From: Escherichia coli
GTDB lineage: Bacteria > Pseudomonadota > Gammaproteobacteria > Enterobacterales > Enterobacteriaceae
Assembly (NCBI RefSeq): GCF_022846255.1
Contig: NZ_AP025682.1
Strand: one strand, 5' to 3'
Length of the DNA: 64,000 bases
The translations under genes were made by a program, and so were the position numbers. The first letter of the stretch is position 1. Each line of letters begins with the position of its first letter. Shown one piece after another: positions 32,876-34,526 of this stretch. The notes beneath the pieces are model-generated. The model saw nothing but the letters and a program-made list of their open reading frames with translations. It ran no database searches and was not told the origin of the DNA.

Positions 32876-32895
32876 AACTTCAAGCTCCGGCATCA

Positions 32896-34341
32896 CTATT
32901 TTTTAGCATTCGCATCCAGCGGGGCGGCATAACAACTGTAAGAAAAACATTCGCTGGAATGATTGGCGATATCTTTAAAGTTGCTTTCAGCAACCCCCTC
33001 GAACATGAGTACCGTTCTGGATAACTCTCCGTTGTCATTTATATGTGGAAAATCAAATTGTGTACTGAATCGCCATACATCTGTCTTTTCTGGCTCGCTG
33101 TTCACAGAGATACGTCGATGGATGGCTCCTCCTGAAAACGTGCGCCAGAACAATTGTTGATCAAAATCTTGTAATATCGCACACTTGGATGCTATTTGAC
33201 GTAGTAAACCTGCATACCGTGGACTGCCATTACGAGCAACATTATGCAAACCCTGACTAAAAGCATCAAACAAACAATAGATATGATCACTAGTGAAAAA
33301 AGGTCTTAATTTTTTTTGTTCTTCATCGCTGTAATCCAGGAGCATCTCATTGATTTCTTCCGGTGAGAATTTTAAGACAAAATTATCCTCAGGATTTGTT
33401 TCTTTCTTGTTTTTTTCACTATTCTTCTCCTCAATGGTCTTCGCATTTTGTTTCGCAATTTTTTTCGCATTTTCTTCCTCAGTTTTTTTCGCAATTTTTT
33501 CCCGAGTTTTTGGTTTTAGACTAACACCATCGATGTCAACCGGTGTTGTTTTCAGATCTCTCTGCGCGTCTTTCAAATTTGTCTTATAGAGATCGGGCAC
33601 TTTATCGGCAGATAAGTATCCGGATGAAGAAATCTGGTGTGTACGCATGGGGGGCTGTTCACAAAGCATCGAGGCTATATCGTCTTTAAACTCTTTTACA
33701 TTAAAGTTATCGGCATTAACCTTCCCTGTTATAAACCCCGCATCGGCAATTTTCTTCTCTAATTGTTTTGTACGTTTAGAATAATAAGCGTTGTTATCAT
33801 AAAACTTTTCAAGAAGGGCCCACTCCTCAAGCTGCCTTATGTGATTTTTCAACTGTTGATGATCTATTTTATATTCATGTGTACTAGAATCATTTTGGTT
33901 GCAAGAGTTACAGATTTTTAAGCATAATTTTCCATCAGATTTATCATCTATGGTATCAGTGAAAATATAGGACACTTCAATATTCTGCCCGTTCTTATCA
34001 GTCATCTCATATGACCATTGCCCCGTTCGTTTCGCATTCTTAATGAGTTCGATGGACTCTGCAGGACAACCATGAAGAATGGGCAGAATTTTATCAGGAT
34101 GCTTAATGAGTAAAATCATTATATTTACAATATTTGAAAAGAAATCTTTGCTATTTTTTATTTCATCGATTTTTTCCGCTGAAATGTTTACTAAGTTTTC
34201 ATTTCCGGAAATGAAAAGCAATTTGCCATGGGGGCTTTTTTTAAATTGTTCTTCTGTTTTAGAAAAGACATCCTCTTTAAAAGGTGGCAACTCAGTACCA
34301 GTAATAAACGGTTTCAATAAATTCGAATTTGAAATTGTCAT
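32896..34341 (-). CDS. Hypothetical 481-aa protein on an AT-rich islet (unassigned; candidate horizontally acquired effector or defence protein)
   Basis: Uninterrupted 1446-nt ORF with ATG start and GGAG 7 nt upstream; nucleotide composition visibly AT-rich against the flanking core genes; not in the K-12 acpH-malZ interval as I remember it; Lys/Glu-rich repetitive centre; no Walker A, HExxH or other motif I can recognise. Confidence 0.8.
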   Translation of the reverse strand: MTISNSNLLKPFITGTELPPFKEDVFSKTEEQFKKSPHGKLLFISGNENLVNISAEKIDEIKNSKDFFSNIVNIMILLIKHPDKILPILHGCPAESIELIKNAKRTGQWSYEMTDKNGQNIEVSYIFTDTIDDKSDGKLCLKICNSCNQNDSSTHEYKIDHQQLKNHIRQLEEWALLEKFYDNNAYYSKRTKQLEKKIADAGFITGKVNADNFNVKEFKDDIASMLCEQPPMRTHQISSSGYLSADKVPDLYKTNLKDAQRDLKTTPVDIDGVSLKPKTREKIAKKTEEENAKKIAKQNAKTIEEKNSEKNKKETNPEDNFVLKFSPEEINEMLLDYSDEEQKKLRPFFTSDHIYCLFDAFSQGLHNVARNGSPRYAGLLRQIASKCAILQDFDQQLFWRTFSGGAIHRRISVNSEPEKTDVWRFSTQFDFPHINDNGELSRTVLMFEGVAESNFKDIANHSSECFSYSCYAAPLDANAKK

Positions 34342-34448
34342 ATCTTTGCTCCACTACAGGGTTATCCTGGAGCATGTTGTACATAACCTCATGGGCAAAG
34401 AATACCAAAAATCGCTCATATCGATCGGGACAAATATTTAACAAACTC

Positions 34449-34494
34449 AGCCCTGACATTGTGCAGATTTTTCGCTGCGTAGTGTCAGGGCTGA
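34449..34494 (-). terminator. Strong stem-loop downstream of malZ (candidate malZ terminator)
   Basis: Perfect 11-bp inverted repeat cagccctgaca / tgtcagggctg with a 24-nt loop, 33 nt past the malZ stop; followed on the minus strand by a T-rich but interrupted tract. Confidence 0.45.
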
Positions 34495-34526
34495 TGACTA
34501 ACGACGTAACAAATAAAACAGATGCT

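Follow-up and report, generated by a model that had tools for sequence, protein, structure and literature searches.

An AT-rich single-gene islet at the acpH-malZ junction of Escherichia coli probably encodes a soluble orphan protein restricted to E. coli and Shigella

We analyzed a 64,000-nucleotide stretch of Escherichia coli DNA (RefSeq assembly GCF_022846255.1, contig NZ_AP025682.1; we call the whole stretch the window) and concentrated on an AT-rich islet of about 1.65 kb that lies between the core genes acpH and malZ. The islet holds one protein-coding gene, which we refer to as the orphan gene. We think it likely that this is a horizontally acquired ORFan, restricted to E. coli and Shigella, and that it encodes a real, soluble protein made of two modules. 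Under this reading the DNA would have arrived in a single insertion by illegitimate recombination at the 4-bp acpH/malZ junction, and part of the species would since have passed it on by inheritance and by homologous recombination. The product would be a slightly acidic protein of 461–493 amino acids, with an N-terminal alpha/beta module that carries an invariant His/Cys cluster and a C-terminal helix-plus-beta-sheet module, the two being joined by a hypervariable segment. For the allele in the window, we expect this segment to be a K/E-rich and probably helical spacer whose length changes in 4-residue steps.

The islet and its boundaries

The islet spans 32871..34526 and was delimited by comparison with empty sites. 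On its left is acpH (acyl carrier protein phosphodiesterase, 32294..32875, plus strand) and on its right is malZ (maltodextrin glucosidase, 34527..36344, minus strand), both named from the RefSeq annotation of orthologous loci. The orphan gene (32896..34341, minus strand) is on the same strand as malZ and downstream of it. In carriers, the islet has replaced an ancestral 10 bp between the convergent acpH and malZ, namely the last two acpH codons and a 4-bp spacer. The end of acpH reads GCG CTC TGA in carriers vs. GCG TTA TAA at empty sites, and the end of the protein is unchanged. The left boundary of the foreign DNA is at about 32871, within the last two acpH codons, rather than at 32876, where the initial annotation had put it. 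The right end lies directly before the malZ stop codon and agrees with that annotation.

The composition of the islet sets it apart from everything around it. The GC content is 36.9% for the open reading frame (ORF) and 37.6% for the islet, vs. 51.1% for the window, 53.0% for acpH and 54.3% for malZ, so the AT-richness that the initial annotation had noted by eye is borne out by the computed values. Among all 64 1-kb blocks in the window, the one with the lowest GC is 33001-34000, and among the 48 non-overlapping window ORFs of at least 150 amino acids, the orphan is the only one with a GC fraction below 0.46. The difference extends to codon positions, where the orphan has GC fractions of 0.44/0.32/0.35 compared to about 0.6/0.4/0.6 in its neighbors; at the third position (GC3) this is 0.35 vs. 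0.57–0.60 in the neighbor genes.

The islet sits in a neighborhood of housekeeping genes (queA, tgt, acpH, malZ and proY). No transposase or integrase ORF adjoins it and there is no tRNA anywhere in the 64-kb window, both as the initial annotation had it, and no flanking direct repeats or terminal inverted repeats were found at the islet. An Rfam scan of the region from 30 to 37 kb gave no match to any RNA family. The precise boundaries point to illegitimate recombination and not to a site-specific element, as far as can be judged from comparing carriers with empty sites.

We extracted acpH with its surroundings from 80 GTDB species representatives and determined how far malZ lies from it. In a K-12 derivative, only 4 bp separate these convergent genes, with no orthologue of the orphan in K-12, and the arrangement in CFT073 is the same; the initial annotation had given the K-12 order correctly. 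The 4-bp spacer is also found in E. albertii, in two cryptic-clade Escherichia and in one divergent E. coli. The ancestral state is therefore the empty one, and gain of the islet took place within E. coli. We also considered that K-12 might have lost the islet, and rejected this because E. albertii and the cryptic clades have the same 4-bp empty junction. Birth of the gene de novo at this position was rejected as well, as the ancestral site in these relatives is only 4 bp long.

In other genera of the Enterobacteriaceae, the acpH-malZ interval varies from 0.8 to 6.6 kb with a normal GC of 0.50–0.64, and none of these intervals among the 80 representatives encodes a relative of the orphan ORF. 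For some species outside Escherichia, malZ is not within 7 kb of acpH. The acpH-malZ junction is evolutionarily plastic across the family.

Distribution

The orphan ORF is present in 1127 of 5426 complete E. coli genomes (approximately 21%), and it is always single-copy, chromosomal and at the acpH-malZ junction. The carriers include O157:H7 Sakai, O55:H7, enteroaggregative E. coli (EAEC) 042, which is LEE-negative (LEE, locus of enterocyte effacement), and entries named Shigella dysenteriae. They also include extraintestinal isolates of avian and human origin, as well as a commensal taken from a healthy student. The gene is the orthologue of ECs_0454 (ECs0454) in O157:H7 Sakai and of WP_000155936 in EAEC 042. 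RefSeq labels it "hypothetical protein" everywhere, so it is already known as an annotated hypothetical protein in more than 1000 RefSeq genomes, O157 Sakai among them. The novelty that the initial annotation claimed holds in a weak form, as an uncharacterized orphan, and is reduced by this existing annotation.

The genome nearest to the allele in the window is that of strain SCU-111, with 99.9% nucleotide identity. The exact 481-residue sequence is not in a collection of 15 billion proteins, and each word-index search returned approximately 380 matches, all of them from E. coli or Shigella entries. We looked for a donor among phages, plasmids and other species and found none. The orphan is absent from 50,697 INPHARED phage records, from IMG/VR viral contigs (two scans) and from true plasmids (two matches labeled as plasmids are mislabeled 4.9-Mb chromosomes), and the GTDB species representatives contain no relative of it.

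Two carriers have damage in this region. In O55:H7 USDA5905 (2601-4341 of the extracted locus), the 5' three-quarters of the orphan gene and the 3' end of malZ are deleted and both genes are annotated as partial pseudogenes, a case in which the islet is lost along with a core gene. In strain LH50-c, which has the islet, malZ (4258-6074 of the extracted locus) is annotated as frameshifted.

Coding capacity and selection

The gene runs from an ATG through 481 codons and a stop codon and is the maximal ORF at this position, as first annotated. The other five frames over the same stretch have 18–58 stops each. An open frame of 481 codons in DNA of 37% GC, set against that many stops elsewhere, is therefore not due to chance. 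The ribosome binding site proposed by the initial annotation could also be located: a Shine-Dalgarno-like GGAG at 34349..34352 (minus strand), 7 nt upstream of the ATG. This GGAG is kept in all eight alleles that we compared, in the context GGGAG in six and TGGAG in the other two (GTATTGGAG).

The protein sequence evolves quickly. The ratio of non-synonymous to synonymous divergence (dN/dS, by the Nei-Gojobori method) is 0.75 over the eight alleles and 0.70 without the divergent class described below, and no 40-codon window falls outside the range from 0.3 to 1.6. In the same genomes, dN/dS is 0.02 for acpH and 0.06 for malZ. A ratio that is this high and roughly uniform along the gene is what one would see in a functionless passenger, a silent foreign ORF drifting towards pseudogenization. 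Such a passenger would also fit the composition that is unadapted to the host, the low confidence of the AlphaFold models, the absence of a detected promoter and the existence of frameshifted and deleted alleles. However, we consider this explanation unlikely, as several observations speak against it. None of the 114 polymorphic codons has a nonsense change, where neutrality predicts about 7 (P about 8e-4; 6.1% of the possible non-synonymous changes in the orphan sequence are nonsense). When 40 genomes were sampled evenly across the identity ranking, 37 had in-frame lengths, so that the frame is intact in more than 90% of the sampled carriers, whose alleles differ from one another by 3–20%. 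The gene is intact even in the S. dysenteriae entries, a species known to have undergone heavy gene decay. Both extreme termini hardly vary, compared to differences of up to 33% in the center. The alleles indicate that selection keeps the frame open and hardly constrains the amino-acid sequence.

Protein anatomy and allele classes

The alignment of alleles, together with the secondary structure in the AlphaFold models, suggests three parts. The putative N-terminal module (residues 1-275; 33517..34341, minus strand) is predicted to contain helices and a four-strand beta region at residues 108-160. Its first 13 residues are invariant across alleles and rich in S, T and N. It has a cysteine cluster, C140-x3-C144-x2-C147 (33901..33924, minus strand), that is invariant in 21 alleles and in the 461-residue class; H90 and C92 are invariant as well, and the five residues H90, C92, C140, C144 and C147 are a possible metal site. 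We tried reading the CX3CX2C motif as a Radical-SAM signature and rejected it, because there is no match to Radical_SAM or to any other Pfam or NCBIfam family and the motif is in a region of predicted beta strands, not in a TIM barrel.

Next comes the hypervariable linker, rich in K, E and A (residues 276-316; 33394..33516, minus strand), which is encoded by a degenerate 12-bp tandem repeat. Tandem Repeats Finder reports it at 33409-33511 with a period of 12/24/48. Its copy number varies among alleles in steps of 4 amino acids, giving proteins of 469–493 residues, all in frame. The C-terminal module (residues 317-481; 32899..33393, minus strand) is expected to form a helical bundle and, after it, a beta-meander with long strands. 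We found no signal peptide or transmembrane segment in the protein (the maximum Kyte-Doolittle value in a 19-residue window is 1.43), and it is slightly acidic, with 67 K+R vs. 72 D+E.

A second allele class encodes 461 amino acids and is equally widespread (more than 700 contigs). In place of the linker tract it has an unrelated short segment, and its nucleotide sequence diverges by up to 33% over the approximately 300 nt after the linker, outside of the repeat tract. Its ends are nearly identical to those of the first class, and the last 85 or so residues of the protein are almost invariant even between the two classes. A divergent center between near-identical ends marks the orphan gene, in the alleles compared, as a recombinational mosaic that has two or more deep allele lineages.

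Family searches

The initial annotation could not match the protein to a family, and neither could we. Pfam (best i-E 0.015) and NCBIfam gave no significant match. In PADLOC-DB v2.0.0 there were 0 families at E <= 0.1. PHROGs gave nothing significant, with one match at E 0.006 over 32 residues. Searches of the PDB by sequence and by profile found nothing significant either; the best match (E 0.025) was driven by the low-complexity linker. The AlphaFold2 models were unusable, with a predicted local distance difference test score (pLDDT) of 38.8 from the 21-allele alignment and of 50 for the C-terminal 165 residues, and fold searches with them came back empty. A structural comparison of the C-terminal module with the NTF2-like fold gave no clear match.

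With phmmer against 1.84 billion representatives at 50% identity, we recovered the full-length cluster of the orphan itself, its own fragments and one distant match, P0139. This protein comes from a metagenome and combines a PG_binding_1 domain with three PKD_4 repeats. Residues ~101-158 of the orphan align to each of the three repeats with 24–31% identity, the alignment includes a TGxW...D.NG...Y core and a TH.Y motif, and phmmer scores the match with a library-wide E-value of 9e-7. For the matching region of the orphan, the AlphaFold model shows four beta strands, predicted with low confidence. However, the orphan has no Pfam PKD match (PF00801 / PF18911), the profile-profile comparison with hhalign gives a probability of 36%, and the match spans about 58 of the approximately 85 residues of a PKD domain. 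P0139 also does not have the invariant Cys cluster of the orphan, and PKD domains are normally extracellular while the orphan has no signal peptide. We treat the alignment as a lead, which may hint at a PKD-like region, and not as an assignment.

Leader and expression context

Just downstream of the malZ stop codon and upstream of the orphan gene there is a GC-rich stem-loop (34447..34494, minus strand), seen both as an inverted repeat and in the RNA fold. It consists of a 12-bp outer stem and an inner stem and is followed by a U-rich stretch. The 189-nt leader RNA folds at -52.6 kcal/mol (z = -2.7). The stem is conserved across the eight alleles, and the indels are confined to the loop. The hairpin is probably either the malZ terminator, which the islet would have supplied, or an attenuator that limits how far transcription reads through to the orphan gene.

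A consensus scan of the 185-bp leader found no sigma-70-like promoter. The lack of a detected promoter, combined with the conserved hairpin behind malZ, makes it probable that expression of the orphan gene is weak, coming from read-through or from a poor promoter of its own, or that it depends on an activator. AT-rich foreign DNA in E. coli is typically repressed by H-NS, and by analogy the orphan gene is probably silenced by H-NS as well.

The leader also contains an upstream ORF of 55 amino acids (34459..34292, minus strand). It is open in all eight alleles, has its start within the leader hairpin's 3' arm and covers, in another frame, the first 16 orphan codons. We treated it as spurious, as it has no ribosome binding site and every substitution in it changes an amino acid.

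Possible roles of the protein

The initial annotation saw in the islet the signature of a secreted virulence effector or of an anti-phage gene. The description behind this, a foreign single-gene cargo in a conserved junction that is absent from K-12, proved right, but the inference of an effector or defence role has no positive test behind it. If the protein does have a role, our own tentative guess, about which we are doubtful, is a non-catalytic binding or adaptor protein and not an enzyme, with the central region setting specificity in an antagonistic interaction. A broader suggestion, which we regard as unlikely, is that the orphan represents a new family of E. coli-specific conflict proteins with unseen folds, either a type III substrate (conceivably the missing one of ETT2, the cryptic second type III secretion system of E. 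coli) or a single-gene anti-phage or abortive-infection protein. If so, the dimorphic mosaic center and the variable charged spacer would determine target specificity.

The effector explanation takes the orphan to be a type III substrate, exported via LEE in O157, via Mxi-Spa in Shigella or via ETT2 in EAEC 042, and encoded on a backbone islet like that of EspY3. EspY3 is type III effector-like and 523 amino acids long, with a gene GC of 32.5%. In O157 Sakai, the espY3 (ECs_0472) islet is 15 kb away from the orphan islet and consists of one gene in 1.98 kb of 34.5% GC between the core genes pgpA and yajO. Both are lone genes for proteins of approximately 500 amino acids, on islets of approximately 2 kb and 35% GC between core genes, without mobility genes. 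The N-termini are also alike in being polar with late acidic residues: in the orphan, S, T, N, Q and P make up 40% of residues 2-26, which ranks second among the 48 window ORFs, and the first acidic residue is at position 17. The invariant start of the orphan, the absence of a Sec signal and of a transmembrane segment, and the presence of O157:H7, EAEC 042 and S. dysenteriae among the carriers all fit an effector, and the rapid evolution and the variation in repeat length are compatible with a protein that interacts with a host.

Still, we find this explanation quite unlikely. The two proteins share no sequence similarity (BLASTP vs. EspY3 gives E = 0.73), and the orphan has no match outside its own cluster and no Pfam or NCBIfam family. 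The orphan is also present in LEE-negative lineages, and its distribution seems to follow lineage and not pathotype: it includes the LEE-negative 042, extraintestinal isolates and a commensal. The gene is not on a prophage or a pathogenicity island. The N-terminal composition test is weak: in 19 of the 48 background ORFs, the first acidic residue comes as late or later. In a strain with an intact ETT2, a secretome study reported no secreted effector (PMC6030553).

As for the espY3 site, the strain of the window does not have the espY3 islet. Its 53-bp yajO-pgpA gap (19363-19415) holds a GC-rich palindrome, GCCTGATGAGACGTGACAAGCGTCACATCAGGC, that looks REP-like (repetitive extragenic palindromic) or terminator-like.

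The other specific role that we weighed is a novel single-gene anti-phage or abortive-infection (Abi) protein, in which the variable center would track phage-encoded triggers. The islet is a compact, AT-rich, strain-variable cargo without a housekeeping homologue, and the dimorphic mosaic central region and the high dN/dS are what such a protein might show. Abi genes of the classical kind are often orphans rich in AT, and some defence genes of E. coli were discovered by functional screens outside of defence islands. Like the single-gene anti-phage systems in PADLOC-DB v2, the orphan is strain-variable, encoded by a single gene and compositionally foreign. It differs from them in having no model match (PADLOC returned 0 matches), in not being in a named hotspot or on a mobile element, and in being confined to one species and one fixed chromosomal site, with no occurrence on plasmids, in phages or in IMG/VR. 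Defence genes already known are typically mobile and spread over many taxa. In Pfam and NCBIfam, the protein matches no effector domain, be it nuclease, ATPase, TIR, Sir2 or another, and no defence, integrase or prophage genes adjoin the islet. The junction (malZ, acpH, yajB, queA) is not named in the text or the searched supplements of a paper on E. coli defence hotspots. We consider this role very unlikely.

Comparison with known ORFans and points against

We return to our preferred reading, that of a horizontally acquired ORFan restricted to E. coli and Shigella. ORFans of E. coli are AT-rich, with conserved coding capacity and elevated non-synonymous diversity (Yu & Stoltzfus 2012, PMC3514957), and they are short and usually found in one genome (PMC3514957). 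The orphan resembles the ORFans and small O-islands described so far (PMC3514957; uz-Zaman & Ochman 2025, PMC12315717) in being taxon-restricted and AT-rich, with preserved coding capacity, high non-synonymous diversity and no donor found. It differs in being much longer, at 481 amino acids, and in occurring in approximately 21% of genomes rather than in one or a few. It also differs in having two deep allele classes with intragenic mosaicism, and in not having been born de novo, given the 4 bp of the ancestral site. We conclude that the orphan belongs to the known class of AT-rich ORFan islets and is an ordinary O-island object, with no unusual mechanism shown.

Several points weigh against our reading of a real, maintained two-module protein. 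A dN/dS near 0.75 is equally expected of a slowly decaying gene, and among the 40 sampled genomes there are two with frameshift lengths and one with a deletion. The leader has no recognizable sigma-70-like promoter. Both the length of the protein and its 21% prevalence are atypical for an ORFan, being too long and too widespread compared to those described (PMC3514957). In the searched literature we found no mention of ECs0454, of the likely EDL933 and 042 locus tags or of the protein accessions. The proposed two-module architecture comes from AlphaFold secondary structure of low confidence (pLDDT 39 and 50), and the adaptor guess was drawn solely from the absence of motifs and from the evolutionary mode.

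Approximately one fifth of sequenced E. coli carry this protein, which has no relative among about 1.8 billion representatives. This makes the islet a clean and experimentally tractable case for studying both the origin and the function of bacterial ORFans, with the advantages of a base-exact insertion point, a known ancestral empty site and two deep allele classes to compare. Should the protein prove to act as an effector or in defence, it would represent a new family; otherwise it is a well-characterized example of a long, widespread and fast-evolving orphan.

Other observations

The second-lowest-GC kilobase of the window (0.388) is at 57000-58000. It contains iraP (57101..57361, minus strand), which encodes an 86-residue anti-adaptor, and the AT-rich phoA-ddlA intergenic region. 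This is a known core region, annotated in 042 and in CFT073, and not an islet.

Between secF and yajD, the annotation of CFT073 shows no genes. In the extracted O157 Sakai locus, positions 14258-14774 between the same two genes encode a transcriptional regulator and a plasmid stabilization system protein (ECs_0461/0462), which look like a toxin-antitoxin pair.

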